Below are positions 1-64,000 of a DNA stretch of 64,000 nucleotides, piece by piece (the first letter of the stretch is position 1; each line of letters begins with the position of its first letter). Under the pieces are notes generated by a model. It saw only the letters and a list, made by a program, of their open reading frames with translations, had not been told where the DNA came from and did no database searches. Source of the stretch: Pristiophorus japonicus. Its lineage: Eukaryota. The stretch lies in assembly GCF_044704955.1 (NCBI RefSeq), contig NC_091996.1, positions 97,960,001-98,024,000 of the forward strand, written 5' to 3'. The position numbers and the translations under genes are program-made.

Positions 1-470
1 CGCCGCACTGTCGGAGGGGCAGTACTGAGGGAGTGCCGCACTGTCGGAGGGGCAGTACTGAGGGAGTGCCGCACTGTCGGAGGGGCAGTACTGAGGGAGT
101 GCCGCACTGTCGGAGGGGCAGTACTGAGGGAGCCCCGCACTGTTGGAGGGGCAGTACTGAGGGAGCACCGCACTGTCGGAGGTACCGTCTTTCGGATGAG
201 ACATTAAACTGCTCCCTTGGATTGATATAAAAGATCCTGCGGCACTATTTCAGAGAAGAGCAGGGAGCTATCCCTGGCAATTGTGTACCCAAGCTCAGTA
301 GTGCAGGTTACCTGGACGTTCTAATCTTGCAGTGTGTGGGAGCTTGCTGTACAAAGATTAGTGTTTTGTTTCCTACATTACAACAGTGACTACACTTCAA
401 AAAGTACTGCGCCGGCTGTAAAATGCTTTTGCGAGGTCGTGAAAGGCGGTATATAAATGCAAGTCTTTCT
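1..470 (+). mobile_element. DeuSINE (SacSINE1-like) SINE, 5' part outside window, with internal 33-bp minisatellite (1..181)
   Basis: 33-bp unit cgcactgtcggaggggcagtactgagggag(t/c)gc is followed by the SINE body (gtctttcggatgagacattaaac...gaagagcaggg) and the 3' tail gaaaggcggtatataaatgcaagtctttc. The same body recurs many times in the window. Confidence 0.8.
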
Positions 471-4205: not shown

Positions 4206-4400
4206 CTGTGGCCGCAAGAAAGCAGAATGGGGTTATAGAATGGGCCCCTTTCACGACTCCATAACCACTCACAGCAGGCGGAGGGTTAAAGCCAGGTCGG
4301 GGTGTGCCGAGTATTTGAGAATGTTTGAGCTGATGATCTAATCGGGAAGCTAATCCAATAATAGACGGAACTTTCTCCCCAGATATTCCGAGCCTCCGTC

Positions 4401-4440
4401 ATGCTGAGGGGACTTATCCTCTTCACTCTGCTCGCTCAGG
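4401..4440 (+). CDS. LECT2: LECT2 coding exon 1 (signal peptide MLRGLILFTLLAQ, phase-1 donor)
   Basis: ATG in gtcATGc context, hydrophobic leader, consensus donor cagg|gtaagt. Phase joins exon 2 in frame. Confidence 0.8.
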
Positions 4441-4968
4441 GTAAGTCGGCACAGCCCCAGTGTGGGCGGAGATAGCGCTGTAGAATTATTTGGGATTCAC
4501 AAACCCTTTTGTTGCGCTAAAATGTTTAAAGAAACGGTTCAGAACTCTCCTGCTCACACAGGATTGCGCTCTGTCAGTTGTTGTGAGGGTTGTTTCCCTG
4601 AGGTCGCTCTAAGGTGCCCTTCAGCCCGTCCCATTAATCACCATCCCTGCTGAAATCATGCGTTCCAGTGAGTGCAATTTGCAGCTCTGTCTGACACGCC
4701 CCAAATCCCATCCCCATTTCCTGAGGGAGGTTTGTTTGGCCGGTCTGGAGGGCACCATTGCCCCCACAGGGGACCGAGAGTTTGGACACTGGCTGCTGGA
4801 TCCAAGCACCGCCCCCAGCTGCGAGTACAGACCTTGCTGGGATTTAACCAGCTCAAACTGCAGGGTGTTGCTCAATCTTCCCACTGCTTCTCCTGCTGGG
4901 AACTACCTGCACAGTGGTACATTTCATTACAGAGTTCTCTGGAGCCAAGTGTGAGTAGTTCCACACTC

Positions 4969-5790
4969 CAGATATCCCACCCAGTCTAATCCCACTCTCC
5001 CCCTCCCCATTTAATATCCCACCCAGTCTAATCCCACTCTCCCCCTCCCCATTTAATATCCCACCCAGTCTAATCCCACTCTCCCCTCTCTCCCCACCTT
5101 TAATATCCCACCCAGTCTAATCCCACTCTCCCCTCTCTCCCCACCTTTAATATCCCACCCAGTCTAATCCCATTCTCCCCCTCCCCATTTAATATCCCAC
5201 CCAGTCTAATCCCACTCTCCCCCTCCCCATTTAATACCCCACCCAGTCTAATCCCACTCTCCCCCTCACTCCCCGACCCTTTAATATCCCACCCAGTCTA
5301 ATCCCACTCTCTCCCTCCCCATTTAATATCCCACCCAGTCTAATCCCACTCTCCCCTCTCTCCCCACCTTTAATATCCCACCCAGTCTAATCCCACTCTC
5401 CCCCTCCCCATTTAATATCCCACCTAGTCTAATCCCACTCTCCCCCTCCCCATTTAATACCCCACCCAGTCTAATCCCACTCTCCCCCTCACTCCCCGAC
5501 CCTTTAATATCCCACCCAGTCTAATCCCACTCTCCCCCTCTCTCCACGATTCTTTAATATCCCACCCAGTCTAATCCCACTCTCCCCCTCACTCCCCCCT
5601 TTAATACCCCACCCAGTCTAGTCCCACTCTCCCCCTCACTCCCCGCACCCTTTAATATCCCACCCAGTCTAATCCCACTCTCCCCCTCACTCCCCCCTTT
5701 AATACCCCACCCAGTCTAATCCCACTCTCCCCACTCTCCCTTTAATATCCCACCCAGTCTAATCCCACTCTCCCCTCACTCCCCGCACAC
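4969..5790. repeat. C-rich ~42-50-bp minisatellite (ttaatatcccacccagtctaatcccactctcccc...) in LECT2 intron 1
   Basis: Visible tandem repeat with a constant core cccacccagtctaatcccactctccc and a variable pyrimidine linker. Confidence 0.9.
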
Positions 5791-5999
5791 TTTGCTGTTC
5801 CTCTATCTAAAATCTGCCGAATTCCTGTTGCAAAGAATGTGCTTCACCATCAGTGTGTGACGTAGAATTGTACATTCTGCCCAGCCATGGTGCAAACAAC
5901 AAAGGGTTCTCCTTATAGTGCGCCTTGCAACTTTAGAATCTGTACCCACTATAGTAAATAAACTGATCTGTGTTGTGTGTTAACTTCCCCCTCGTACAG

Positions 6000-6096
6000 T
6001 TACAGCTGGCAGATGGGGCAAGCTCTGTGCTGGAAATCTGCGGAACAGGGTGAGAGGGACTGATATCTATGGCAATGGGGCTTATGGTGCTCCCAG
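6000..6096 (+). CDS. LECT2: LECT2 coding exon 2 (VTAGRWGKLCAGNLRNRVRGTDIYGNGAYGAPR)
   Basis: Acceptor cttccccctcgtacag|, donor cccag|gtaac, 97 nt, phase 1 to 2. Aligns with human [30 protein letters not shown]. Confidence 0.88.
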
Positions 6097-6139
6097 GTAA
6101 CTGTGACACTGTCGTTATCCATACAATTGTACCTTCCTT

Positions 6140-6580
6140 CAACAACAGCAGCAACAATGTGAACTTATGTAGCGCCTTTAATGTAGTACAATGTCCCATG
6201 GTGCTTCACAGGAGCGTTATCAAACAACATTTGACCCCGAGCCGCATCTTACAACAGATTGGTCAAAGAGGTCGGTTTTAAGGAGCGTCTTAAAGTAGGA
6301 TGGAGAGGTTAGAGAGGCGGAGAGGTTTAGGGAGGGAGTTCCAGAGCTTGGGGCCCAGGCAGCTGAAGGCACGGCCAGCGATGGTGGAGCGATTATAATC
6401 AGGGATGGACAGGAGGGCAGAATTGGAGGAGCGCAGAGGGTTGTAGGGCTGGGGATGGGGAAGGGGTTGCAGAGATAGGGAGGGGCGAGGGCCATGGAGG
6501 GATTTGAAAACAAAGATGAGTATTTTTAAAATCGAGGCGTTGGTTAACCGGAAGCCAATGTAGGTCAGCGAGCACAGGGG
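6140..6580 (-). mobile_element. L2-clade LINE 3' fragment
   Basis: Reverse complement of the element at 11330-11723; (caa)n tail; encodes LAPPYLCN-like motif. Confidence 0.7.
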
Positions 6581-7033
6581 GGAGGGACTATCTGAAGAGA
6601 GAACGGTTTCACTCCCTCTCCCTGCTCCCCGCTTTGGTGGCCCCGATCACCTCCATGTTCCTGTTACATGGAGCGTTGGTGTCAGACTTGGAGCCTGTAG
6701 TGCACGTGCCAAGGGCTGGAAGGCTGAAGGGGGAAGAACATTTCCATAAATTCTACAACACAGGATCACAGGCCGTCTTAACTCATCACAGTACTAGCCT
6801 GTCGAGCGCACTTCCTGTCAGAGGCGCCGTTATTTCCTGTCACACTTCAGACGTCACACTCTGATGGTGAGCAATGCCACGGGCGATCCACTGGTACTCT
6901 TCGAACGCGAGATCTCAGTGCTGAGGGTGCTGTGGAAATTGTCGGTACAGTAATAGCCATGTCCATCAGACGTTAGGAATATTTCACCGACAGATGATCG
7001 TATTCGGGGCTGACTGTGTTTTGTCGTGTACAG

Positions 7034-7182
7034 GAAGGGTGGGACCACACACAAGGGGGTCGACGTGGTTTGCAGGAACGGATCAACAGTTTACGCCCCC
7101 TTCAGCGGCAGGCTGATGAGACGGGCCACCCCCTATAGGGAAACAAACGCGATTAACAATGGAGTAAAGTTGGAAGGAGCAG
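7034..7182 (+). CDS. LECT2: LECT2 coding exon 3 ([49 protein letters not shown])
   Basis: Zn motif HKGVD; matches human [20 protein letters not shown]...NAINNGVRISG. Acceptor gtacag|, donor gcag|gtgag, 149 nt. Confidence 0.95.
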
Positions 7183-7452
7183 GTGAGAAGAGTTCATTCC
7201 ATTCAGTCCAATCTGCCAGCTCCTTGCTAACCTGTCTCCCCATTTCCCCACGAAATCATCAGGGAATTCAAATTCACAGCTGCACAAGGGTGGAGGGAGC
7301 AGAAGCACAAGAACGATGGGCCGAATGGCATGCTTTTGTCTTGTATCATTCTATAATTCAAATGGGAGCCCTCCCCCGGCACTGACTGATTCTCTGAGTC
7401 GCTGGGCTTCTTCACGTTTGGTAATTATCTCTCGCTGTTGAGTTTAGAGCGG

Positions 7453-8162
7453 AATTCTATTAAAATGCATCCGTAAAGTCCTGCTTTATAATGTAGCAGG
7501 AAGCGGTTGTAACTCCCTCCCCAGATAGGGGGCTTGTCCATTTCGAATTCCTAGATCCTACCGATATACGTGGCTTAAGATCGACCTGCATTCATACGAA
7601 CAACGACAGACAAGCAAAGACCCTCCTATCCCACACAACATATACACTACACCCCACCCGAACCCATGTGGTCTCCTGGGAGAGGAAAAACAGTTCGATA
7701 ACGCAGGTCAACTTGAGTTAAAAAAAATACGGGAAATTCTGCTCCGATCCAACTCGCCCAGGAGATCACTCTGGCCCTGAACTCCCCGCAGTACCCACCT
7801 CCTGTAAGAGGGATCTCCACCCCAGAAACAGCTCCAGCTCTCGCCCAAAGGAATTCAGCCAATCAGCGTCCAACGCACGAGACAGCAGCCTGATCCAGAG
7901 GTCCTCTGGGTAAAGAACCACCTCCTGACATCTGACCCCGATCTAGCCTTGTACAACTTAAATCTGTGACCCCCGATCCTCCCGAACCTATTTAATTGAT
8001 CGTATGTGACAAGACTCCATATGAATGCAGGTCTGTCTCAAGCCATGCATATCGGTAGGATCCAGGAATTCGAAATGGACAAGCCCCTATCTGGGGAGAG
8101 ATTTAAAACTGCTTTTTGTTACATTAAACAACAGGACTTTACAGATGCATTTTAATAGAATT
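7453..8162. mobile_element. ~710-bp element bounded by ~140-bp imperfect inverted repeats (MITE/foldback-like)
   Basis: 7453..7596 is the near reverse complement of 8020..8162 (aattctattaaaatgcat...gacctgcattcata versus tatgaatgcaggtc...atgcattttaatagaatt). Confidence 0.65.
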
Positions 8163-8379
8163 ATCTTATGATTCTATTAACCTATAACCCCATTCTGCCT
8201 ACATTTCTCTAAAGTGTAGCGCCCAATTCCTTTTAGCCTACCTTGATAACTAAGATGCTTTAAACTGTAAATTAGTCGAGTGAATTAGTAACATCTCTCA
8301 GGAACTCCTCACACTATCTCCCACATAATAAATTGCCTAAATGAGTGAATCTTGATTGTGGAAACACGGGAACCAGTTT

Positions 8380-8605
8380 GTGCAGAGTGAGATCCCACTG
8401 GCCATAAAATGAATGACACCAGTGGGGTGTTGGCTGAGGGAGGAATATTGTTTCAGTAGGCCAGGAGAACTCCCCCTGCTCATCTTTCATTATTGCTGTG
8501 GGACCCTTCCCATCCGTGTGCACAGTGAGTTCCCAGGGACCCTCCTCTCAACGTCCCACCTGAAGGACGGCACCTCCGACAATGCAGCACTCCCTCAGTA
8601 CAGCC
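8380..8605 (-). mobile_element. DeuSINE fragment (diverged)
   Basis: Reverse complement of SINE body: ccaggagaactccccctgctc...gacggcacctccgacaatgcagcactccctcagtac. Confidence 0.65.
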
Positions 8606-8616
8606 CCTAGTATCTC

Positions 8617-9722
8617 CATAAGAACATAAGAAATAGGAGCAGGAGTTGGCCATTTGGCCCCTCGAGCCTGCTCCGCCATTCAATACAATCATGGCTGATC
8701 CGATCATGGACTCAGCTCCACTTCCCCGCCCGCTCCCCAGAACCCTTCACTCCCTTATCGCTCAAACATCTGTCTATCTCCGCCTTAAATATATTCAATG
8801 ACCCAGCCTCCACAGCTCTCTGGGGCAGAGAATTCCACAGATTTACAACCATCTCAGAGAAGAAATTTCTCCTCATCTCAGTTTTAAATGGGCGGCCCCT
8901 TATTCTAAGACCATGCCCCCTAGTTCTAGTCTCCCCCATCAGTGGAAACATCCTCTCTGCATCCACCTTGTCAAGCCCCCTCATAATCTTATACGTTTCG
9001 ATAAGATCACCTCTCATTTTTCTGAATTCCAATGAGCAGAGGCCCAACCTCCTCAACCTTTCCTCATAAGTCAACCCCCTCATCCTCGGAATCAACTGAG
9101 TGAACCTTCTCTGAACTGCCTCCAAAGCAAGTATATCCTTTCGTAAATATGGAAACCAAAACTGCACGCAGTATTCCAGGTGTGGCCTCACCAATACCCT
9201 GTATAACTGTAGCAAGACTTCCCTGCTTTTATACTCCATCCCCTTTGCAATAAAGGCCAAGATACCATTGGCCTTCCTGATCACTTGCTGTACCTACATA
9301 CTAACCTTTTGTGTTTCATGCACAAGTAACCCCCAGGTCCTGATGTACTGCAGCACTTTGCAATCTCTCTCCATTTAAATAATAACTTGGTCTTTGATTT
9401 TTTTTCTGCCAAAGTGCATGACCTCACACTTTGTCACATTATACTCCATCTGCCAAATTTTTGCCCACTCACTGAGCCTGTCTATGTCCTTTTGCAAATT
9501 TTTTGTGTCCTCCTCACACATTGCTTTTCCTCCCATCTTTGTATCGTCAGCAAACTTGGCTACGTTACACCCAGTCCCTTCTTCCAAGTCATTAATATAG
9601 ATTGTAAATAGTTGGGGTCCCAGCACTGATCCCTGCGGCACCCCACTAGTTACTGATTGCCAACCAGAGAATGAACCATTGATCCCGACTTTCTGTTTTC
9701 TGTTAGTTAGCCAATCCTCTGT
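8617..9722 (-). mobile_element. 5'-truncated CR1 LINE (RT C-terminal part plus 3' UTR)
   Basis: PQGSVLGPQLFTIYINDL...KFADDTK and LVRPHLEYCVQFW...KGVKGSGERAGKWS*; tandem (ttcttatg) tail at 8617-8633. Confidence 0.93.
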
Positions 9723-10362
9723 CCAAAGGATACGCGGTCAAGGTCTGGTGTGGGCTTGAAGCCCAAGGTGCTACCCACTGAGCCAAGCTGACAAGGGAAG
9801 GCAAGTGGTGGACTCATAAATATGACCAAGCTGTCCTCTTGTCCTGTGCCTGTTGCGTGTGGTAAGCTGACCGTGATTAAGTGAGAACCCCTCTTCAATG
9901 ATTGACTGACTCAAGTACTTGAGTCGCAACCAAAACTCGGTCTCCCGGATGGCTGAGTGTGTAAGGCAGCCAATGGCACTGGGCTACGCAGAGCAAGAGG
10001 ATCCATGTCTGATCCTTGATCAAATGCTGCGTTCAAGGTCACTGTGGGGTGGCCGAGTTTCGACCCCGGGGGTAGAATAAAATCACTCGGCTCTTTATGT
10101 GGGAAATTCTGCTGCCCGCCTCCTTAGAATGAGATACCTAAACAAGGGCCGCAGTGCTTGGCTCAATGGTCGTTCTCTCACTTGTGAATCAGGTCAATGG
10201 TTCAATACCTGCTCCAGCCCTTAAGCACATAATCTCGTCTAACACTCCAGTGCAGCATTGGGTGAATGCTGCATTGTCAGAAGTGTGGGCTCAGTGTGAC
10301 AGTAAGGATATACAGTGTGGGATCAGTATTATTTTTCATAGAATTTCTCTCTCTAATTCCAG

Positions 10363-10532
10363 GTTACTGCGTTAAGATCTTCTACATTGCCCCGGAGCGT
10401 TACACTGGGTACGTTTTGAAGGGCCAGAAGATCGGGACTTTGCTGAACGTTCAAAGTGTTTACCCCGGGATCACCTCCCACGTTCACATCGAGATGTGCA
10501 ACACGTCCACAGACCCCACAAGTCACCTGTAA
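10363..10532 (+). CDS. LECT2: LECT2 coding exon 4 ([56 protein letters not shown])
   Basis: Acceptor ctctctctaattccag|; HVH Zn motif; matches human GFCVKMFYIKP...[23 protein letters not shown]. The four exons total 456 nt = 151 aa plus stop. Confidence 0.95.
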
Positions 10533-11329: not shown

Positions 11330-11723
11330 AATGCCTCACTTTTAAAATTCTCATCCTTCTTTTCAAATCCCCCCTTGACTTTGCCCGCCTCTGTATCTCT
11401 GTAACCTCCTCCAGCCCTCCAACCCCCCGAGATATCGGCGCTCCTCCAATTCTGCCCTCCTGACCATCCCTGATTATAATCACTCCACCATCGGTGGTCG
11501 TGCCTTCAGCTGCCTGGGCCCCAAGCTCTGGAACTCCCTCCCTAAACCTCTCCGCCTCTCTCGCCTCCTTTAAGATGCTCCTCAAAACCGATCTCTTTGA
11601 TCACACCCGTCCAAATATCGCCTCATGTGGTTCGGTGCCAAACCTTGTTGGATAACGCTACTGTCAAGCGCCTTGGGACGATTTACTACGTTAACGGAGC
11701 TATATAAACGCAAGTTGTTGTTG
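11330..11723 (+). mobile_element. L2-clade LINE 3' end
   Basis: tttaaaattctcatcc...gccttcagctgcctgggccccaagctctggaactccctccct..., ending gctatataaacgcaagttgttgttg. Confidence 0.7.
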
Positions 11724-12690: not shown

Positions 12691-13234
12691 CTTCACCTCC
12701 CTCAGCCTCTCCTTCCTCCCTCAGTCCATAGGATTTCAAAACACGAGCTTCCTGTCGACTAACTTCACTTCCTGTTCATAGAACCGTAGGCCATGGATAC
12801 TTCCACACAGGAGGCCACTTGGCCCAGCGAGCCTGCGCTGGCTCTGTGACAGAGCAGTCGTGCTCAGTCCCACCTCCACCTCGCTTTCTGCCCGTAACTC
12901 AGTGAGCTCCTCACCCCCCAGTACCCGTCCCAACACCTTTTCAGGCCGAAGGTTCCAAATCCCGGCAACTCTCTGAGTGAGAAGGTTTCTCCCCCTCGCC
13001 CCTCTGGATCTTTTCCCGGTGAGTTTGACTCGATGACCTCTGGTTATTGACCCACTCGCCTGTCCCAGCTCCTCCTCTCCACACACCGGGATTGTCGGGA
13101 CACGTGCAGCACATTGCTGGGAGGGACTTACCACCTGAGCCCCTGGAGTACTGGCCCTCAGGGTTTGAGGCCAGAGCCCCCGAGGGTGAAAGGACCGTGT
13201 TGGTTCCCCACCGCCTGACACTGTGCGCGGGCAA

Positions 13235-17989: not shown

Positions 17990-19742
17990 CGGGGCTCATT
18001 GGGCAACAACTCTCGTCTCGGAGTCACAAGGTCCCACTCCAGAGACTTGAGCACGAAGATCTAGGCTGACACTTCCAGAACTGAGGCTGCACAGTCGGAA
18101 GGGCAGTACTGAGGGAGCGCCGCACTGTCGGAGGGGCAGTACTGAGGGAGTGTCGCACTGTGGGAGGGGCAGTACTGAGGGAGTGCCACACTGTCGGAGG
18201 GGCAGTACTGAGGGAGCGCCGCACTGTTGGAGGGGCAGTACTGAGGGAGCCCCGCACTGTCGGAGGGGCAGTACTGAGGGAGCCCCGCACTGTCGGAGGG
18301 GCAGTACTGAGGGAGTGCCGCACTGTCAGAGGGGCAGTACTGAGGGAGTGCCACACTGTCGGAGGGGCAGTACTGAGGGAGCGCTGCACTGTCGCGGGGC
18401 AGTATTGAGGGAGCGCCGCACTGTCGGAGGGGCAGTACTGAGGGAGCGCCGCACTGTCGGAGGGACAGTACTGAGGGAGCGCCGCACTGTTGGAGAGGCA
18501 GCACTGAGGGAGCCCCGCACTGTCGGAGGGGCAATACTGAGGGAGTGCCGCACTGTCGGAGGGGCAGTACTGAGGGAGCGCTGCACTGTCGCGGGGCAGT
18601 ATTGAGGGAGCGACGCACTGTCGGAGGGGCAGTACTGAGGGAGCGCCGCACTGTCGGAGGGGCAGTACTGAGGGAGTGCCGCACTGTCGGAGGGGCAGTA
18701 CTGAGGGAGCGCCGCACTGTCGGAGGGGCAGTACTGAGGGAGCCCCGCACTGTCGGAGGGGCAGTACTGAGGGAGTGCCGCACTGTCGGAGGGGCAGTAC
18801 TGAGGGAGCGCCGCACTGTCGGAGGGGCAGTACTGAGGGAGCCCCGCACTGTCGGAGGGGCAGTACTGAGGGGGTGCCGCACTGTCGGAGGGGCAGTACT
18901 GAGGGAGCCCCGCACTGTCGGAGGGGCAGTACTGAGGGAGTGCCGCACTGTCGGAGGGGCAGTACTGAGGGAGCCCCGCACTGTCGGAGGGGCAGTACTG
19001 AGGGAGCCCCGCACTGTCAGAGGGGCAGTACTGAGGGAGTGCCGCACTGTCGGAGGGGCAGTACTGAGGGAGTGCCGCACTGTCGGAGGGGCAGTACTGA
19101 GGGAGCCCCGCACTGTCGGAGGGGCAGTACTGAGGGAGTGCCGCACTGTCGGAGGGGCAGTACTGAGGGAGCCCCGCACTGTCGGAGGGGCAGTACTGAG
19201 GGAGCCCCGCACTGTCAGAGGGGCAGTACTGAGGGAGTGCCGCACTGTCGGAGGGGCAGTACTGAGGGAGTGCTGCACTGTCGGAGGGGCAGTACTGAGG
19301 GAGCCCTGCACTGTCGGAGGGGCAATACTGAGGGAGCCCCGCACTGTCGGAGGGGCAGTACTGAGGGAGCCCTGCACTGTCGGAGGGGCAGTACTGAGGG
19401 AGCCCCGCACTGTCGGAGGGGTAGTATTTCAGCTAAGATGTTGACCTGAGGGCCTGTCTGCCCCCTCAGGAGATGTAAAAGATCCCGTGGCCACTTTTTC
19501 AAAAAAGAGCAGGGGAGTTCTCCCCGGTGTCCTGGGGCCAATATTTATCCCTCAATCTACATCACTAAAACAGATTATCCGGTCATTACATTGCTGTGTG
19601 TGGGAGCTTGCTGTGCACAAATTAGCTGCCACTTTTCCCACATTGCAACAGTGACCACACTCCAAAAGTACTTCATTGGCTGTAAAGCACATTGGGACGT
19701 CCGGTGGTCGTGAAAGGCGCTATATAAATGCAAGTCCTTCTT
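17990..19742 (+). mobile_element. DeuSINE inflated by ~40 copies of an internal 33-bp minisatellite (18089..19425)
   Basis: Head (gtcccactccagagacttgagcac) precedes the array; SINE body and tail gaaaggcgctatataaatgcaag follow it. Confidence 0.88.
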
Positions 19743-20989
19743 TCCCAGGAATTCAACACTGTGAGACTCTTGCCCTTTCTCAGACACACTTCCTCCTGCA
19801 GCTCCACTCGGAACATGACAACTAACTTCACTTCCTGTTGATAGAATTGGAGGCCATGGATACTTACGGCACACAAGGAGGCCAATCGGCCCGACGTTCC
19901 TGCGCTGGCTCTGTGACAGAGCAGTCGTGCTCAGTCCCACCCCCACCTCGCTAACCCTGTGAGCTCCGCACCCTCCAGTACCCGTCCCAACACCTTCTAC
20001 AATTATTGATGGAACCAGCCACCTTTTCAGGTCTGGCGTTCCCGATCCCGGCAACTCTCTGAGCGACAAGATTTCTCCCCTCTGGATCTTTGGCCGGTGA
20101 TTTTGAATCTAGTTATTGACCCACTCGCCCGTTCGATCTCCTCCTCTCCACGCCGGCATTGCCAGAACATTTCCAGTGCAGTCTCTGACAGGGGCCAGAC
20201 AACCGATTGACGTGACTGCTACGAATGGTCAACTCTGGGAGCCTCTGACAGTGACTCCTTCCCCCCCGGGTCAGTCGACACTCAGGGGTTCCTTCCCTCC
20301 CACGTTACCCCTTGTGGACACTCGGGCTCTGGCCGGGTAGCGGCCCCACGCTCCGAGACTCTCTCTCGCTCCTGTGCGAGTTTGCAGTCTGTCTGTCCGT
20401 CTGTCTGTCCGTCCGTCTGTCCGTCTGTCGGAGGAGTAGGAGGTGGGTCACGGGAGAAAGTGAGGGGGAGGCGATCCCAGGGTGGGGTGAAAGGTCGATG
20501 ACCCAGTGAGACAGCCACACAGCGATACCAGAAAGAGAGTTTATGGAGACAAGCGTGCTGTTATTTCTTCTCCATTTCTACTTTCTGTGCCTGTTTTCTC
20601 TGTGTTTGTTCCTGAGCAGAGAGGTCGACAGTCTGTGCCCTCAACATTATGGCACCATGGATCCTACTCCTGATACAGCCCCTTTACACAGCTTTTTGTT
20701 TAAAGAAAAAAACCCTCCTCCTATTTCTATCCAGTGCCCCCGCTAAAGGCGTTTGGCTCTCACGAGAGTTCGGTTCCACTTTTCACATGTGACTTGGACG
20801 TTGGGCGGTAGGCGGTTATTCAACAGGCGGGGGCATCGCAGCAATGCCCTGCTTTCTCCTCTCTTGACTTTGGGCAATGGACACGATCCAGCTGGGTGCA
20901 GAGCTGGGATAAAGGATTGCTATACAGGCGTGGGATCTGGAGCTGGGGTGGAGGAATGCGTTGTATTATTGTTATTATCCGTTCCCGGG

Positions 20990-22495: not shown

Positions 22496-22553
22496 ATGGA
22501 CATGAAGTTCTCCAGTATCATCCGGATCAGCATCTGTTGGTTATTAATGAAAG
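22496..22553 (+). CDS. leader exon of V-type IgSF gene (MDMKFSSIIRISICWLLMK, phase 1)
   Basis: ATG(s), hydrophobic stretch and donor aaag|gtatgt. Phase-1 join gives ...LLMKG-GSVRG-EVHQRP, a typical split signal peptide. Confidence 0.65.
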
Positions 22554-22632: not shown

Positions 22633-23842
22633 TGGGTTCAAAATCCAGAGACTTGAAGCACAAAAATCGAGGCGAACACTCCCCGTGCAGTACTGAGGGA
22701 GCTCCGCACTGTCAGAGGGGCAGTGCTGAGGGAGCTCCGTACTGTTGGAGGGGCAATACTGAGGGAGCGCCGTACTGTCAGAGGGGCAGTGCTGAGGGAG
22801 CTCCGTACTGTTGGAGGGGCAATACTGAGGGAGCGCCGTACTGTCAGAGGGGCAGTACTGAGGGAGTGCCGCACTGTTGGAGGGGCAGTACTGAGGGAGC
22901 GCCGCACTGTCGGAGGGGCAGTACTGAGGGAGTGCCGCACTGTCGGAGGGGCAGTACTGAGGGAGCAATGTACTGTCGGAGGGGCAGTACTGAGGGAGCC
23001 CTGCACTGTCGGAGGGCCAGTACTGAGGGAGCGCTGTACTGTCGGAGGGGCAGTACTGAGGGAGCCCCGCACTGTCGGAGGGGCAGTACTGAGGGAGTAC
23101 CACACTGTCTGAGGGGCAGTGCTGAGGGAGCGCCGCACTGTCGGAGAGGCAGTGCTGAGGGAGCACTGTACTGACGGAGGGGCAGTCCTGAGGGAGTGCC
23201 GCACTGTTGGAGGGGCAGTACTGAGGGAGCACTGTACTGACGGAGGGGCAGTACTGAGGGAGTGCAGCACTGTCGGAGGGGCAGTACTGAGGGAGTGCCA
23301 CACTGTCGGAGGGCCAGTACTGAGGGAGCGCTGTACTGTCGGAGGGGCAGTACTGAGGGAGTACCACACTGTCGGAGGGGCAGTACTGAGGGAGCGCCGC
23401 ACTGTCGGAGGGGCAGTACTGAGGGAGTGCTGCACTGTCAGAGAGGCATTACAGAGGGAGTGCCGCACTGTCGGAGGGGCAGTATTGAGGGAGTGCTGCA
23501 CTGTCAGAGAGGCATTACAGAGGGAGTGCCGCACTGTCAGAGGGGCAGTACTGAGGGAGCCCCGCACTGTCGGAGGTGCCATGTTTTGGATGAGACGTTA
23601 AACTGAGGCCCCGTCTGCTCTCTCAGGTGGATGTAAAAGATCTTAGGGCACTATTTTGAAGGAGAGCAGGGGAGTTCTCCCCGGTGTCCTGGGGCCAATA
23701 TTTATCCCTCAATCAACATCACTAAAACAGATTATCTGGGTCATTATCACATTGCTGTGTGTGGGAGCTTGCTGAGCGTAAATTGGCGTTTCCCACATTA
23801 CAACAGCGACAGCAGTTCGAAAAATAACTTCATTGGCTGTCT
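22633..23842 (+). mobile_element. DeuSINE with ~27 copies of the 33-bp minisatellite (22686..23576)
   Basis: B-box remnant gggttcaaaatccagagacttg, then array, then SINE body ending acttcattggctgt. Confidence 0.88.
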
Positions 23843-23974: not shown

Positions 23975-24331
23975 GGGGCTCGGTACGAGGTGAGGTCCAC
24001 CAGCGGCCGGCCACACTCGAGGCCGAAGAAGGGGATTCCGTGGAGCTGAGCTGCCGCTTCGATGAGCCCGGGAGGGCACCGCAGCTGGTGAGTTTCCAGT
24101 GGGATCTGCCAGATGGTGAGCTGTACCAAATGGTGCCGGGCGACAGGGCTCTGGGTGGGTCGGGCCGGAGGGTGTCTCTTCACACTGACCTCGCGACGCG
24201 GAGCAGCGAGCTACGCATCAGCAACGTCACGACCAGCGACAGCGGCCACTACCTGTGCATCATCCAGCTCCTGGAGCCCCTGCCCATAATTCAGATGGAG
24301 GGGCGTGGGACCCAGCTCCGGATCATACCAG
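23975..24331 (+). CDS. Ig V-set domain exon with germline-joined J-like motif (CD28/CTLA4/NKp30-like single-V protein)
   Basis: Acceptor tattttgtttgcag|, donor ccag|gtacac, 357 nt, phase 1-1. B-strand VELSC, C-strand FQW, E-strand SELRISNV, F-strand DSGHYLC, G-strand GRGTQLRI. Confidence 0.9.
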
Positions 24332-24344
24332 GTACACCAATTCA

Positions 24345-24460
24345 AACCTTCTTTTATCTTCTCCTGCGGAAGGATATATTGGCCTTGGGTGTGCTGCATA
24401 AATTTACCAGAATTATTCCTGGACGCCGAGGGTTAAATTACTCGGAGAGGTTTCTCAAAT
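24345..24460 (+). mobile_element. old CR1 fragment (appears to continue at ~26353..26472)
   Basis: LRKDILAL...KFTRIIPG.RGLNYSER, a diverged CR1 ORF2. The downstream part ttcccgctggttgggg...tttggaactctct lies after the younger CR1. Confidence 0.6.
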
Positions 24461-26352
24461 TGTTGGCAACCAGTAACCAGTCGGGTGCCACAGGGATCAG
24501 TGCTGGGACCCCAACTATTTACAATCTATATTAATGACTTGGAAGAAGGGACTGAGTGTAACGTAGCCAAGTTTGCTGACGATACAAAGATGGGAGGAAA
24601 AGCAATGTGTGAGGAGGACACAAAAAATCTGCAAAAGGCTCAGTGAGTGGGCAAAAATTTGGCAGATGGAGTACAATGTTGGAAAGTGTGAGGTTGTGCA
24701 CCTTGGCAGAAAAAATCAAAGAGCAAGTTATTATTTAAATGGAGAAAGAGTGCAAAGTGCTGCAGTACAGCGGGACCTGGGGGTACTTGTGCATGAAACA
24801 CAAAAGGATAGTATGCAGGTACAGCAAGTGATCAGGAAGGCCAATGGTATCTTGGCCTTTATTGCAAAGGGGATGGAGTATAAAAGCAGGGAAGTCTTGC
24901 TACAGTTATACAGGGTATTGGTGAGGCCACACCTGGAGTACTGCGTGCAGTTTTGGTCTCCGTATTTACGAAAGGATAGAAACATAGAAACATAGAAACA
25001 TAGAAAATAGGTGCAGGAGTAGGCCATTCGGCCCTTCTAGCCTGCACCGCCATTCAATGAGTTCATGGCTGAACATTCAACTTCAGTACCCCATTCCTGC
25101 TTTCTCGCCATACCCCTTGATCCCCCTAGCAGTAAGGACCTCATCTAACTCCTTTTTGAATATATTTAGTGAATTGGCCTCAACAACTTTCTGTGGTAGA
25201 GAATTCCACAGGTTCACCACTCTCTGGGTGAAGAAGTTCCTCCGCATCTCGGTCCTAAATGGCTTACCCCTTATCCTTAGACTGTGACCCCTGGTTCTGG
25301 ACTTCCCCAACATTGGGAACATTCTTCCTGCATCTAACCTGTCTAACCCCGTCAGAATTTTATATGTTTCTATGAGGTCCCCTCTCATTCTTCTGAACTC
25401 CAGTGAATACAAGCCCAGTTGATCCAGTCTTTCTTGATAGGTCAGTCCCGCCATCCCGGGAATCAGTCTGGTGAACCTTCGCTGCACTCCCTCAATAGCA
25501 AGAATGTCCTTCCTCAGGTTAGGAGACCAAAACTGTACACAATACTCCAGGTGTGGCCTCACCAATGCCCTGTACAACTGTAGCAACACCTCCCTGCCCC
25601 TGTACTCAAATCCCCTCGCTATGAAGGCCAACATGCCATTTGCTTTCTTAACCGCCTGCTGCACCTGCATGCCAACCTTCAATGACTGATGTACCATGAC
25701 ACCCAGGTCTCTTTGCACCTCCCCTTTTCCTAATCTGTCACCATTCAGATAATAGTCTGTCTCTCTGTTTTTACCACCAAAGTGGATAACCTCACATTTA
25801 TCCACATTATACTTCATCTGCCATGCATTTGCCCATATACTTGCTTTGGAGGCAGTTCAGAGAAGGTTCACTCGGTTGATTCTGGGGATGAGGGAGTTGA
25901 CTTATGAGGAAAGGTTGAGGAGGTTGGGCCTCTACTCATTGGAATTCAGAAGAATGAGAGGTGATCTTATGGAAACGTATAAGATTATGAGGGGGCTCGA
26001 CAAGGTGGATGCAGAGAGGATGTTTCCACTGATGGGGGAGACTAGAACTAGGGGGCATGATCTTAGAATAAGGGGCCGCCCATTTAAAACTGAGATGAGG
26101 AGGAATTTCTTCTCTCTGAGGGTTGTAAATCTGTGGAATTCTCTGCCCCAGAGAGCTGTGGAGGCTGGGACATTGAATATATTTAAGGTGGAGATAGACA
26201 GATTTTTGAGCGATAAGGGAGTGAAGGGTTATGGGGAGCAGGCGGGGAAGTGGAGCTGAGTCCATGATCAGATCAGCCATGATCGTATTAAATGGCGGAG
26301 CAGGCTCAAGGGGCCGAATGGCTGACACCTGCTCCTATTTTTTATGTTCTTA
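24461..26352 (+). mobile_element. 5'-truncated CR1 LINE (same subfamily as 8617..9722), split by a nested CR1
   Basis: ORF2 breaks at ...WSPYLRKD (24978) and resumes at atatacttgctttggaggca (25835), ending KGVKGYGEQAGKWS* and a ttatgttctta tail. Confidence 0.92.
24979..25834 (-). mobile_element. nested CR1 LINE of a second subfamily
   Basis: Uninterrupted 244-aa ORF2 C-terminus (25083..25817) and (tttctatg)n tail at 24979-25005. Confidence 0.92.
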
Positions 26353-26530
26353 TTCCCGCTGGTTGGGGAATCCTGGACTAGGGGCACAGTCTAAACAGTA
26401 GAGCCAGACGTTTCAGGAGTGACATTCGGAAACACTTCTACACACAGGGTGGGAGAGGTTTGGAACTCTCTTCATTGTGAATTACTTTGTGAAAGGTGTT
26501 ATATAAAGGCAGGTTCTTCTTATTTCCCAG

Positions 26531-26584
26531 CTAAAGTGAAGCATGAAGGAACAAACGAGCCCCAAGTCATCACAGAGCTGTTCG
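26531..26584 (+). CDS. IgSF gene stalk micro-exon A ((A)KVKHEGTNEPQVITELF)
   Basis: Acceptor ttcttcttatttcccag|, donor ttcg|gtacgt, 54 nt, phase 1-1, open in frame with the V exon; paralogous to B and C. Confidence 0.7.
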
Positions 26585-26754
26585 GTACGTTCTTGTAGAA
26601 ACATCTCTGGGTAAAAAAATAACATTGAACCTTGTATAAGTTAAGGAAATAAAGATCATGAGATGGTCCTTGGATGATTAAAGGTATCCTTCCGTTGACA
26701 TAATAGCTCTCCCTTTGAAGGTAGTCGTCAGTGTTCAGACATCACACCAAACCA

Positions 26755-27305
26755 CGCTCTCTCGGGTGGACGCGAAAGATCCCACGGCACTATTTCGAAG
26801 AAGAGCAGGGGAGTTATCCCCGGTGTCCTGGGGCCAATATTTAACACTCAACCAACATCATCATCAGACGCAGTCCCTCGGGATCGAGGAAGACTTGCTT
26901 CCACTCAATGTGAGTCCTCAGGTGACTGAACAGTCCAATACGAGAACCACAGTCCCTGTCACAGGTGGGACAGACAGTGGTTGAGGGAAGGGGAGGGTGG
27001 GACTGGTTTGCCGCACACTCCTTTCGCTGCCTGCGCTTGGTTTCTGCATGCTCTCGGCGACGAGACTTGAGGTGCTCAGCGCCCTCCCGGATGCACTTCC
27101 TCCACTAAACCAACATCACTTTAAATAGTAAGATTATCTGGGTCATTAACACATTGCTGTGTGTGGGAGCTTGCTGTGCGCAAATTAACTGCCGTGTTTC
27201 CCACATTACAACAGTGACTACACTCCAAAAGTGCTTCATTGGCTGTGAAGCGCTTTGAGACGTCCTGAGGTCGTGAAAGGCGCTATATAAATGCAAGTTC
27301 CTTCT
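26755..27305 (+). mobile_element. DeuSINE body interrupted by an RTE insertion
   Basis: SINE body reads continuously if 26861..27118 is removed; ends gaaaggcgctatataaatgcaag. Confidence 0.8.
26861..27107 (-). mobile_element. 5'-truncated RTE LINE with 11-bp target-site duplication
   Basis: Reverse complement of RTE 3' end, flanked by aaccaacatca at 26850..26860 and 27108..27118. Confidence 0.85.
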
Positions 27306-28049
27306 TTCTTATTTCCTTAATGGCCCAGGAATCCACTTATCCCAGTTGGTCCGTGCCGACGGCTATCAAACGCCCGATGGGAGAGGAAATCACCATGGGG
27401 TGGGTGATAGCCTGTCGCGTGTGGCCCAGGAGAAGGTCCCTCCATTTCTGTGGCAAACCCACTTGGAAACAGCTTGGGTGCCCCCCCCAGGAGAGTGATT
27501 GCAGCAAGCCAAGAATAGGTATGGATAGTCAGGAGGGGCACGTGACAGGTAGCTGCCCCCCATCCCACCCTTCCAATGGCCCCTTTGGGAGGAGAGTGCA
27601 TTAAAGAGTAATTGTTTCATTAAGATAAGTTCCCTTTTTTTGTTCAGTCAGATCCCAGCCTTGACACGACAGTCCGCCCCCATCGCCACACATGAGCTAA
27701 GAGCACGAGAGCCCCTGGAAGGGCTGAAGAACTATGGCCTCTATTAAAATCATATAAGAGTCCAGTTAAGAATGAGGCCATTCAATTCATCGTGTCCATG
27801 CCAGCTCTTTGCTCGAGCAAACTAAACCCACTGCCCCGCAGTGAAACGGATAGTGACCCAAGTTTACCTCAGGATGCTGTTCACGGGAGAACGTGTCACA
27901 TTCCCACCATATTGTCCCATACCTCTTAAAGAGGTGAAGAGTAAAATATCACTGTGTCAATACATGCAGGCTAAAATGTTCAGTTGGATTTATTTGCAGA
28001 TGAAAGGTTATAAGGAGGTGAGACACCGAAACAAGTGCAATCATGGATG

Positions 28050-28450
28050 TTTGGCTCAGGGCCAGGATTTTTACATCTGAGTCAGAAGGTTGTGGGTTCA
28101 ATCCCCACTCCAGTGCTGATCTGAAGCAATGCTTCATTGTTAGAGCTGCCATCTTCCAGATGCGACATTAAACTGAGGTCCTATCTGCCTGTTCAGGTGG
28201 AAGTAAAGATTGTATTGCGCTACTTGGAAGAAGAGCACAGGCGGTCTCCCACTATCCTGGGCAATGTTCTGCCCTCAACCAACACCACTGATCGTCTGTC
28301 CCATGCGCTGATTGTGAGATCTTGCTGTGCGTAAAATGCTGGTCACGTTTCCATAGAGAGCAACTGTGAATGTATTTCAAGAGGAAGTCATGATGAATCG
28401 CTTTGGGGCAGTCTGAGGATGTGAAAGGTGCTATATAAAGGTAATGTCTT
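28050..28450 (+). mobile_element. older, near full-length DeuSINE
   Basis: tggctcag...gtcagaaggttgtgggttcaatccc head through gtgaaaggtgctatataaagg tail. Confidence 0.75.
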
Positions 28451-28466
28451 CCTTCTTATCTCCCAG

Positions 28467-28517
28467 GTGATGTGAAGCATCAAGGAACAAACAAGTTCAA
28501 AGTCGCAGATCTGTCTG
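28467..28517 (+). CDS. IgSF gene stalk micro-exon B ((G)DVKHQGTNKFKVADLS)
   Basis: Acceptor cttccttcttatctcccag|, donor tctg|gtaagt, 51 nt, phase 1-1. Confidence 0.72.
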
Positions 28518-28941
28518 GTAAGTCCTCATGACCACAACTTTGGGATCCTGTTCCAATCTCTCTCAGGGAGGGAGAGTTAATTCGGACCTATTGATTGACA
28601 CACCAATTGATTGATGGCCAAGGCCCACAGTGCCTGGACATTACAGTTCAGGCTTCTTCCAAGTTTTGCTCTTGAGTTCAAGTGTGATTGAGTCTCCCGC
28701 GAACTGAAACCTGTGTCCTTATTCACGGCCATGGAAGGCTGAGCGGACCCAGGTTTAACAATTCCGAATGCCGCTCACGGAAGGATATGTCGTATTCCCA
28801 CCACATTCTCCCATTGCCTTTAAGTGGCGGAGAATAACACATCACGGAGCCGATGTGTGCAGGCTAACACATTAGTTGGATTTATTTTCTGATGAAAAAT
28901 TACAAGGAAGCCAGATGGCAAAACAGCACAATCACGAAAGT

Positions 28942-29385
28942 TTGGCTCAGTGCTAGCATTTTTACGTCTTGAGTGGGAAGGTTGTGGGTTCAATCCTGAC
29001 TCCAGGATTTGAGCACAGTTACTAGGCTGATGCTCCAGTGCTGATCTAAAGCAATGCTCCATTGTCAGGGCTGCCGTCCTCCAGATACGACATTAAATTG
29101 AGGGGCTGTCTGCCTGTTCAGGTGGAAGTAAAAGTTTCTACTTGAAGAAGAGCACAGATGTTTTCCCACTGTCCTGGCCAACGTTCTGCCCTCCACCAGC
29201 AGCACAGAAAACAAACCAGGTTGATTCATCATCTATCTCCTGTGCTGATTGTGGGATCTTGCTGTGCATAAATTGGCTGTCACATTTGCACGAGTAACAA
29301 TTGTGAATGCCATTCAAGACGAAGTCATGGTGAATCGATTTGGGACATTCTGGGGAAGTGAAAGGCACTATATAAAGGCAATGAC
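28942..29385 (+). mobile_element. older, near full-length DeuSINE (paralog of 28050..28450 by local duplication)
   Basis: Shares derived sequence gtgctgatct(g/a)aagcaatgct and upstream unique flank with the 28050 copy. Confidence 0.75.
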
Positions 29386-29403
29386 ATCCTTCTTATGTCC
29401 CAG

Positions 29404-29457
29404 GTAATGTGAAATATCCAGACACAAATGAGTCTACGGTCATCAAAGTTCTGCCCA
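29404..29457 (+). CDS. IgSF gene stalk micro-exon C ((G)NVKYPDTNESTVIKVLP)
   Basis: Acceptor ccttcttatgtcccag|, donor ccca|gtaagt, 54 nt, phase 1-1; carries an N-E-S sequon. Confidence 0.72.
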
Positions 29458-29722
29458 GTAAGTTCTTGTGAACGCCACTCGGGGCAACAACTAACACAGA
29501 TACTTTTATAAGTAAAGGAAATGAGGAAATAAAGATTATGGGCTGGAACCTGGATTATCACTGCATCCTTTCTGTAATGTAATAGTGTTCACTTTGAAAA
29601 TTGTACTTAACAAACACACATCAAACCAAACACAAAGTTAATGGCCCAGAAAACAATTCAGTGATCCCCGTCCTAATGGTAATCAAATTGGAGGAGGATA
29701 GCACCACAGGGGTGGAACACAT

Positions 29723-62700: not shown

Positions 62701-64000
62701 AATCCCACTGCCCCACTTTCTCTCCATAGTCCTGTATCAATCCCCAAACTAATCCCACGGCCCCACTCTCTCCCCATAGCCCTGTATCAATCCCAAACTA
62801 ATCCCACTGCACCGCGCTCTCCCCATAGTCCTGTATCAATCCCCAAGCTAATCCCACTGCCCCGCTCTCTCCGCATAGACCTTTATCAATCCCAAACTAA
62901 TCCCACTGCCCCACTCTCTCCCCATAGCCCTGTATCAATCCCAAACTAATCCCACTGCCCCACTCTCTCCCCATAGCCTTGTATCAATCCCCAAAATAAT
63001 CCCACTGCCCCGCTCTCTCCCCATAGCCCTGTATCAATCCCAAACTAATCCCACTACCCCACTCTCTCCCCATAGCCCCGTATCAAGCCCCAAACTAATC
63101 CCACTGCTCCGCTCTCTCCCCATAGCCCTGTATCAATCCCCAAACTAATCCCACTGCCCCGCTCTCTCCCCATAGCCCTGTATCAATCCACAAACTTATC
63201 CCACTGCCGCGCTCTGTCCCCATAGTCCTGTATCAATCCCCAAACTAATCCTACTGCCCCGCTCTCTCCCCATAGTCCTGTATCAATCTCTAAACTAATC
63301 CCACTGCCCCGCTCTCTCCCCATAGCCCTGTATCAATCCCCAAACTAATCCCACTGCCCCACACTCTCCCGATAGCCCTGTATCAATCCCCAAACTAATC
63401 CCACTGCCCCGCACTCTCCCCATAGCCCTGTATCAATCCCAAACTAATCCCACTGCCCCGCTCTCTCCCCATAGTCCTGTATCAATCCCCAAACTAATCC
63501 CACTGCCCCACTCTCTCCCCATAGCCCTGCATCAATCCGAAACTAATCCCACTGCACCGCTCTCTCCCCATAGTCCTGTTTCAATTCCCAAACTAATCCC
63601 ACTGCCCCGCTCTCCCCATAGCCCTTTATCAATCCCCAAACTAATCCCACTGCCCCGCACTCTTCCCATAGCACTGTATCAATCCCCAAACTAATCCCAC
63701 TGCCCCGCTCTCTCAGCATAGCCCTGTATCAATCCCAAACTATTCCCACTGCCCCACTCTCTCCCCATAGCCTTGTATCAATCCCCAAACTAACCCCACT
63801 GCCCCGCTTTCTCCCCATAGCCCTGTATCAATCACAAACTAATCTCACTGCCCCACTCTCTCCCCATAGCCCTGTACCAATCCCCAAACTAATCCCACTG
63901 CCCCGCACTCTCCCCATAGCCCTGTATCAATCCCAAACTAATCCCACTGCCCCGCTCTCTCCCCATAGTCCTGTATCAATCCCCAAACTAATCCCACTGC
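29723..64000. repeat. ~50-bp satellite array, ~690 monomers, runs off the window end (aaactaatcccactgccccgctctctccccatagccctgtatcaatcccc)n
   Basis: Continuous head-to-tail 48-50-bp monomers with point variants; I saw no unique insertions. Confidence 0.97.

Follow-up and report, generated by a model that had tools for sequence, protein, structure and literature searches.

Small in-frame juxtamembrane exons that alter stalk length and glycosylation are familiar from the variable exons of CD45 and CD44. CADM1 exons 8 and 9 are of this kind, and experiments have shown that they act through O-glycans and shedding (PMC5385562). The human IGHG3 hinge is encoded by 2–5 tandem exons, the number differing among alleles in steps of 15 residues, and its length is thought to affect function (PMC8674132). 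The ends of short interspersed nuclear elements (SINEs) can act as pyrimidine tracts, typically as antisense poly(A) (PMC2911107, PMC13709765); the poly(A) of antisense Alu, B1 and MIR is read as poly(U), and HE1 SINE exonization is described in zebrafish (PMC2911107). Here we examine a 64,000-nucleotide (nt) window of the genome of the sawshark Pristiophorus japonicus (assembly GCF_044704955.1, contig NC_091996.1, here C20:97960001–98024000), which contains a gene for a membrane protein with a single immunoglobulin (Ig) V domain and three stalk micro-exons. We consider it probable that these arose in tandem from a single phase 1-1 stalk exon together with one sense-strand SINE, that the T/C-rich end of the SINE lies in the acceptors, and that exon gain, loss and skipping set the length of the stalk.

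By analogy, the hinge of human IGHG3 comes nearest: small exons and flanking intron are likewise repeated in tandem there and form a spacer (PMC8674132). That hinge is a Cys/Pro-rich part of an antibody and varies in copy number among alleles, whereas the shark gene encodes a membrane stalk that lacks Cys and varies between species, with copies that are old, diverged and each placed behind a SINE. Compared with CADM1, the shark units of most species have N-X-S/T sequons; their skipping is known from gene models only. Tandem exon duplication, variable hinge or stalk exons and SINE-derived pyrimidine tracts are all known already. Overall, we regard the locus as an old tandem exon duplication of an ordinary sort. 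Two modest features set it apart: the tail of a sense-strand SINE probably forms part of the acceptors, and the CD28-like gene itself apparently has no name.

The stalk exons were read from genomic DNA alone, with predicted splice sites. They are A (26531..26584, 54 nt), B (28467..28517, 51 nt) and C (29404..29457, 54 nt), all in phase 1-1 and, like the other features below unless stated, on the plus strand; C has the sole N-X-S/T sequon among the three. The initial annotation's description of three homologous phase 1-1 exons of 51–54 nt is confirmed, and the peptides are as it gave them. Exon nucleotide identity is 39/51 (76%) for A–B, 34/54 (63%) for A–C and 33/51 (65%) for B–C, with one in-frame gap of 3 nt, and the exon bodies have no repeat coverage in the other fetched DNA. 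It had also been claimed that splice sites and frame are kept although the introns have diverged, and this holds: despite 25–35% divergence, all three copies retain a 5′ CAG, a 3′ GTA and an open frame. Because the exons are phase symmetric, copies can be gained, lost or skipped without a frameshift. A tblastn search with five orthologues, covering the window and 200 kb downstream, returned A, B and C and no fourth stalk exon.

The intron DNA around the exons is paralogous as well, as judged from flank comparisons that were each controlled with 200 shuffles. The upstream flank of cassette B (27855..28048) matches that of cassette C (28746..28942) at 139/186 positions (score 113 versus a shuffle maximum of 27), and each leads into a full-length old SINE with its tail, a pyrimidine tract and the CAG acceptor of the exon (28049..28466 for B, with an A/B-box-like head, and 28943..29403 for C). 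In total, B and C align over about 600 nt upstream (flank 141/191, SINE body 306/363). Downstream, the flank of A (26585..26752) is paralogous to 29458–29631 (118/164, score 52 versus a shuffle maximum of 25), part of the downstream flank of C (29458..29650). This A–C alignment of about 170 nt is broken in A by a younger, independent SINE with another repeat inside (26753..27317), and the homology picks up again at 27318 (14/15 junction match). Downstream of B, we found no significant local similarity to the flank of A or C (scores 15–16, shuffle level). Cassette A keeps only about 57 nt of the SINE, with a 16-nt internal gap, as a three-way alignment shows. This segment (26474..26530) holds what is left of the SINE 3′ end, the pyrimidine tract and the CAG acceptor, and in pairwise comparison it matches B at 39/43 positions and C at 36/42. 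Repeat debris that by eye resembles a long interspersed nuclear element (LINE) has replaced its upstream flank and most of the SINE (24371..26472, no strand assigned, up to 90 matches in other fetched DNA); this segment has no significant match to the B/C upstream flank. The cassettes are, in sum, a mosaic of shared and unshared flank stretches.

The two pairs of intron stretches that had been called unique and paralogous, 27965–28050 with 28857–28945 (60/77, score 59 versus a shuffle maximum of 22) and 26585–26720 with 29458–29600 (98/131, 51 versus 24), both lie far above their shuffles. Uniqueness did not stand entirely, as the upstream flank has one extra match elsewhere, of 116 nt at 75% on contig C4 (L051, C4:96721534–96721644), which is perhaps an old low-copy element; at that locus we found no match to the SINE or the exon. 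Across the 5.9 Gb of genome searched, the exon C cassette matched C and A only. Between B and C, the SINE body is more alike than the flank (84% versus 74%, p=0.004; distances of 0.18 and 0.32), a contrast that could reflect conversion, crossing-over inside the SINE, constraint or rate differences. Within the SINE, 28090–28235 and the matching part of SINE C agree at up to 44/46 positions.

We reasoned that variants in the SINE tails bear on whether the exons share one insertion. The tail core TATATAAA ends 23, 27 and 27 nt before exons A, B and C, and in all three it is followed by G, a base found after none of the 35 other tails in the surrounding 464 kb, some of which are local duplicates or members of a sister family. 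Genome-wide, G follows TATATAAA 390 times and T 37,184 times (1.0%). Measured against the column majority of 30 free copies, taken as the first 30 loci listed on contig C1, the SINEs of B and C each differ by 27%, the free copies by a median of 14% and the younger SINE beside A by 8%. Furthermore, B and C have 39 common differences where about 9 are expected, and B has at most 16 in common with any free copy; some of this sharing could come from an older subfamily or gene conversion. To judge by these tails, the three exon-linked SINEs are a single insertion duplicated along with the exon. Given the common rare variant and the common B/C differences, the SINE before the acceptor is one event seen three times. 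Together with the paralogous flanks, the same tail variant and differences support the serial duplication of a SINE-plus-exon cassette, as first proposed. The accompanying statement that each acceptor directly follows a SINE 3′ tail is right in that a tail precedes all three, although in A it is the remnant and not a full copy.

As to the family, SacSINE1 is a tRNA-derived DeuSINE with an L2-like tail, found in cartilaginous fishes (PMC5499810, PMC3747384). The element here resembles it in its length of about 400–450 bp, its A/B-box-like head, its great abundance and age and its occurrence in sharks. By structure, SacSINE1 fits, and the earlier label DeuSINE is plausible. By eye against the box consensus, we take motifs at ~28052–28110 and ~28945–29000 to be A- and B-box-like. 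An Rfam search of the window gave 0 matches at the gathering score. A second family nearby has a near-identical tail core and (GTT)n ends (for example, at window position 11690) and is presumably L2. Some SINE copies contain an internal minisatellite of ~30 bp grown from the SINE body (window 1–180, 18100–19430 and 22680–23570, and L012:8460–8890, a locus in which coordinate 7495 is C20:98131495).

The usual branch-point window lies at −18 to −40. Because the TATATAAA core ends 23–27 nt before each exon, this window is SINE-derived, and all TnA motifs at −18 to −40 of A, B and C fall within SINE-derived DNA. Free SINE tails continue into pyrimidines (median 10.5 nt, 30 loci). Genome-wide, at least 8 pyrimidines follow 37,951 of 82,725 exact tails (46%), and 6,704 (~8%) have in addition a YAG at 21–27 nt, counted with a pattern that may take in LINE tails ending alike. 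The YAG rate after free tails is not above chance (0.18 versus a background of 0.22), which indicates that the AG normally comes from the target site. The SINE likely supplies the pyrimidine tract of the stalk acceptors, as position and family composition suggest. The arrangement is like the known cases of SINE-supplied tracts (PMC2911107, PMC13709765) in that a SINE end would give the pyrimidine tract of a 3′ splice site. It is unlike them in that the shark element lies on the sense strand and would take the pyrimidines from a (CTTT)n-like tail of its own. It is not exonization of SINE sequence, because the exon lies outside the SINE and its body is without repeat coverage. The locus provides a concrete and datable example from a cartilaginous fish in which the tail of a sense-strand SINE probably serves as splice-acceptor DNA. 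It comes with a genome-wide figure open to test, namely that ~8% of exact tails end in an acceptor-like motif. Separately, an independent, younger SINE on the gene's strand, 2.7 kb upstream of the start codon (window 19710–19750), ends in a pyrimidine run and CAG and so illustrates how such a tail can naturally resemble an acceptor.

To place the stalk in a wider setting, units were counted in orthologous protein models, with unit boundaries set from the exon model. All 10 of 10 shark species have 2–5 units: 3 in Heptranchias, Cetorhinus and Carcharodon, 2 each in Heterodontus, Stegostoma, Rhincodon, Hemiscyllium and Chiloscyllium, and 4 and 5 in two Scyliorhinus species. The three rays have 1–3 (Narcine 3, two of them identical; Hypanus 1; Amblyraja one candidate at shuffle level), and the Callorhinchus protein model has no recognisable unit (score 13 versus shuffle 20). 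Copy number, counted as units in protein models, does vary among related species. In comparisons that are weak at 17 residues, the window units score higher with units of another shark order (48–51) than with their siblings (28–33), and exon C and the last unit of Heterodontus are each other's best match. Because the window units are closer to those of other orders than to each other, the first duplication is likely older than the divergence of the main shark lineages, and lineage-specific gains followed. Shark orthologues carry 2–6 N-X-S/T sequons in the 95 residues after the V domain, compared with the one in exon C here. RefSeq protein models of three other sharks, the basis for any skipping, each drop exactly one unit (unit 1 in Stegostoma and Rhincodon, unit 2 or unit 3 in Cetorhinus) and suggest that exons may be skipped independently. 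A metagenome scan for orthologous genomic DNA gave 5 loci from 177 pattern matches, all of 20 residues, which we judged to be chance.

We propose a model in which one old sense-strand SINE was copied in tandem with a phase 1-1 stalk exon, probably by unequal crossing-over and possibly with the SINE itself serving as a homology block. In each acceptor, the T/C-rich end of the SINE would likely provide the branch-point region together with some of the pyrimidine tract, and all three predicted splice sites would be used. Each exon would add 17–18 residues of probably disordered, partly N-glycosylated spacer, and whole-exon gain, loss and, likely, skipping would set stalk length in steps of that size. 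Such a spacer might determine the reach of the V domain, its glycan load or its shedding. A spacer of 17–18 residues measures at most ~6 nm when fully extended and far less as a coil; altered glycosylation, shedding or neutral copy-number drift account for the pattern equally well as height tuning.

Several results count against this model. The exons (63–76% identical) have diverged as much as the introns (69–84%), so that conservation is seen in frame and splice sites and not in peptide sequence. The last 44 intron nt of B and C show no extra conservation (38/44 versus 447/554, p=0.24), and the excess over the last intron stretch of A and C is not significant (33/40 versus 110/160, p=0.06). 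In pyrimidine content the SINE-derived acceptors are not special, because the V exon (11/17 nt) and the terminal exon (14/17) have similar acceptors (13–16/17 in the stalk) without a SINE tail. Unit-skipping isoforms appear in only 3/10 shark species, all as computational models, and the Cetorhinus isoforms that skip unit 2 or 3 are without the transmembrane segment. The initial annotation had inferred that the SINE tail supplies part of the acceptor; the position of the tails and the T/C-rich ends of the family bear this out, but significant extra conservation is absent and the three acceptors represent one event, not three.

Near-neutral copy-number drift is a serious rival to functional stalk tuning. 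In its full form, to which we assign a chance a little short of even, the SINE is merely tolerated: it inserted into the pyrimidine tract of an exon that was already there, its T/C-rich tail happened to leave the acceptor functional, and stalk copy number drifts near-neutrally with no regulated skipping. A SINE tail without excess conservation, YAG at chance level after free tails, exons that diverge as fast as introns and copy number that varies freely among species all agree with it, and with at least 82,725 such tails in the genome some were bound to land at acceptors. Against it, cassette A has lost all of its SINE except the 57 nt beside the acceptor, a single suggestive case; frame and splice sites are intact in 3/3 copies at 25–35% divergence; and unit-skipping models exist in three species.

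A second explanation has the stalk exon arise from intron DNA, in an ancestor shared by sharks and rays, through an acceptor that the SINE insertion created. The 6,704 free tails with at least 8 pyrimidines and a YAG at a like distance make this conceivable. The Callorhinchus stalk is unlike the unit whereas Hypanus matches it (34 versus 21), and a corrected SINE divergence of 33% corresponds to ~300 million years on a rough clock (PMC5499810). However, the clock is crude, and an alternative rate in the same source gives ages ~6× older; a 17-residue stalk can diverge past recognition, with Amblyraja also at shuffle level; and the exon body is not repeat-derived. We regard such an exon birth as unlikely. 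Rather doubtful, too, is the most far-reaching scenario. In it, a single sense-strand SINE inserted at about the time when sharks and rays arose, its acceptor brought the stalk exon into being, and the element afterwards served as the homology block for repeated duplication; the outcome would be a self-contained acceptor-plus-exon module that sets height, with 1–5 units between species and by splicing within an animal. If exon birth by the SINE were true, the thousands of acceptor-like tails in this family would supply shark genomes with new exons quite generally.

It is distinctly improbable that one or more of the micro-exons has died and dropped out of splicing. Additional AGs do lie at −24 and −20 of exon A, whose upstream context is mostly gone, but all three exons keep CAG, GTA and an open frame, and against units in annotated proteins of other shark orders each of them scores 48–51, with shuffle scores of 17–23. 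Three independent insertions, selected or targeted at three acceptors, were rejected on the shared tail variants and are practically out of the question: copies of the family are plentiful, and the A–B intron does contain a fourth one of independent origin, but the 1% variant is common to all three tails, and B and C also have their 39 common differences and a common upstream flank.

A leader (signal peptide) exon of 58 nt (22496..22553, phase 1 at its end) was placed by a tblastn match to the Heptranchias orthologue, and the Ig V-set domain occupies a single phase 1-1 exon of 357 nt (23975..24331) that has 55–66% identity to shark orthologues and matches Pfam V-set (E 1e-10); both are phase-compatible with the three micro-exons. 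The terminal exon, encoding the transmembrane segment and tail, was found by tblastn at C20:98131495–98131731 (= L012:7495–7731), 142 kb downstream of exon C. Its acceptor (L012:7490–7500) is a tandem NAGNAG, in which the distal site keeps the orthologue register and the proximal site adds 1 residue. It lies beyond a 50-bp minisatellite of ~138 kb that fills the last intron and runs from 29723 to the end of the window at 64000 and on to ~167,700 in window numbering (C20 ~98,127,700). A 23-nt single unit similar to this minisatellite occurs at 27817–27839 in the A–B intron, and a second array of the motif lies at ~192,300–198,800.

The V domain has the pattern YxC-x6-PLP-x5-GxG, in which PLP and GxG are invariant in 11/11 aligned sequences; its loop spacing is that given for CD28X/CTLA4-type loops (PMC11599192), and the top Atlas cluster for the Heterodontus orthologue is 'CTLA-4-like'. 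The protein resembles the CD28/CTLA4 family, for which nine loci are described, in having one V domain with YxC-x6-P[P/L]P-x5-GxG, a stalk and one transmembrane segment (PMC11599192). Unlike that family, it has no tail tyrosine motif, no YxxxxT and no EIP motif, and its gene is LECT2-linked, with a stalk of 1–5 repeated exons. No Tyr was found in the sawshark terminal exon, no YxxxxT in the transmembrane segment and no shared Tyr motif in the orthologous tails. Because the tail is without tyrosine and the transmembrane segment without YxxxxT, the protein fails the CD28/CTLA4 signalling features. From sequence features, it is apparently an unnamed, single-V-domain, CD28/CTLA4-like membrane protein outside the described subfamilies. 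LECT2 has 0 occurrences in the text and 9 supplements of PMC11599192, and the accessions, locus ids and loop motif have no match in its 9 text supplements, a search that excluded picture figures and alignments; the excerpts of PMC12227049 and PMC10751288 do not mention LECT2 or CD28. The literature, in coverage that excludes most subscription journals, yielded nothing on this locus or on SacSINE1 tails as acceptors. Structural candidates were set aside: the AlphaFold V-domain model was poor (predicted local distance difference test score of 60.5), its best Foldseek matches were strand-swapped CTLA-4 at template-modelling scores of 0.26–0.29, too weak to count, and searching solved structures by sequence returned TCR-alpha and B7-H3 matches of a generic kind.

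The V gene has as neighbours a LECT2-like gene and a two-V-domain gene. The former lies directly upstream on the same strand (~4400–10530, with tblastn matches at 5999–6097, 7035–7184 and 10362–10433); from its sequence, we take it to be LECT2. A Chiloscyllium model is fused to this LECT2-like neighbour, which supports orthology by synteny, and a Heterodontus model fuses a LECT2-like piece to a multi-V neighbour; these two fusions indicate that the LECT2–V linkage is conserved. The two-V receptor lies ~50 kb upstream of the V gene on the minus strand (L043 and L046; C20:97931507–97934370), and a UniRef protein of P. japonicus matches two V exons 26–28 kb upstream of the window at 100%. Another related V is found 750 kb downstream (L044; C20:98735455–98735811). 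Related V exons with P-x-P-like loops cluster on C20, and the cluster looks like an undescribed CD28-like subfamily. In the ray models (Hypanus and Amblyraja), the orthologous V is joined to 1–2 such V domains before the stalk, and frog proteins whose PLP loop is similar scored as well. A CD28/CTLA4-like cluster beside LECT2, with a stalk of 1–5 units across sharks and rays, offers a natural series for studying the effects of ectodomain height in a checkpoint-like receptor.

Two further resemblances were seen upstream of the gene. The segments ~12760–13090 and ~19820–20150 resemble each other by eye, both contain ACTTCCT motifs, and they may represent one promoter-like segment that was duplicated. 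Upstream of the window, at C20 ~97,857,000–97,912,000, near-identical blocks spaced ~24–25 kb apart repeat the same SINE tails and open frames two to three times, as would be expected of either a recent segmental duplication or an assembly repeat.

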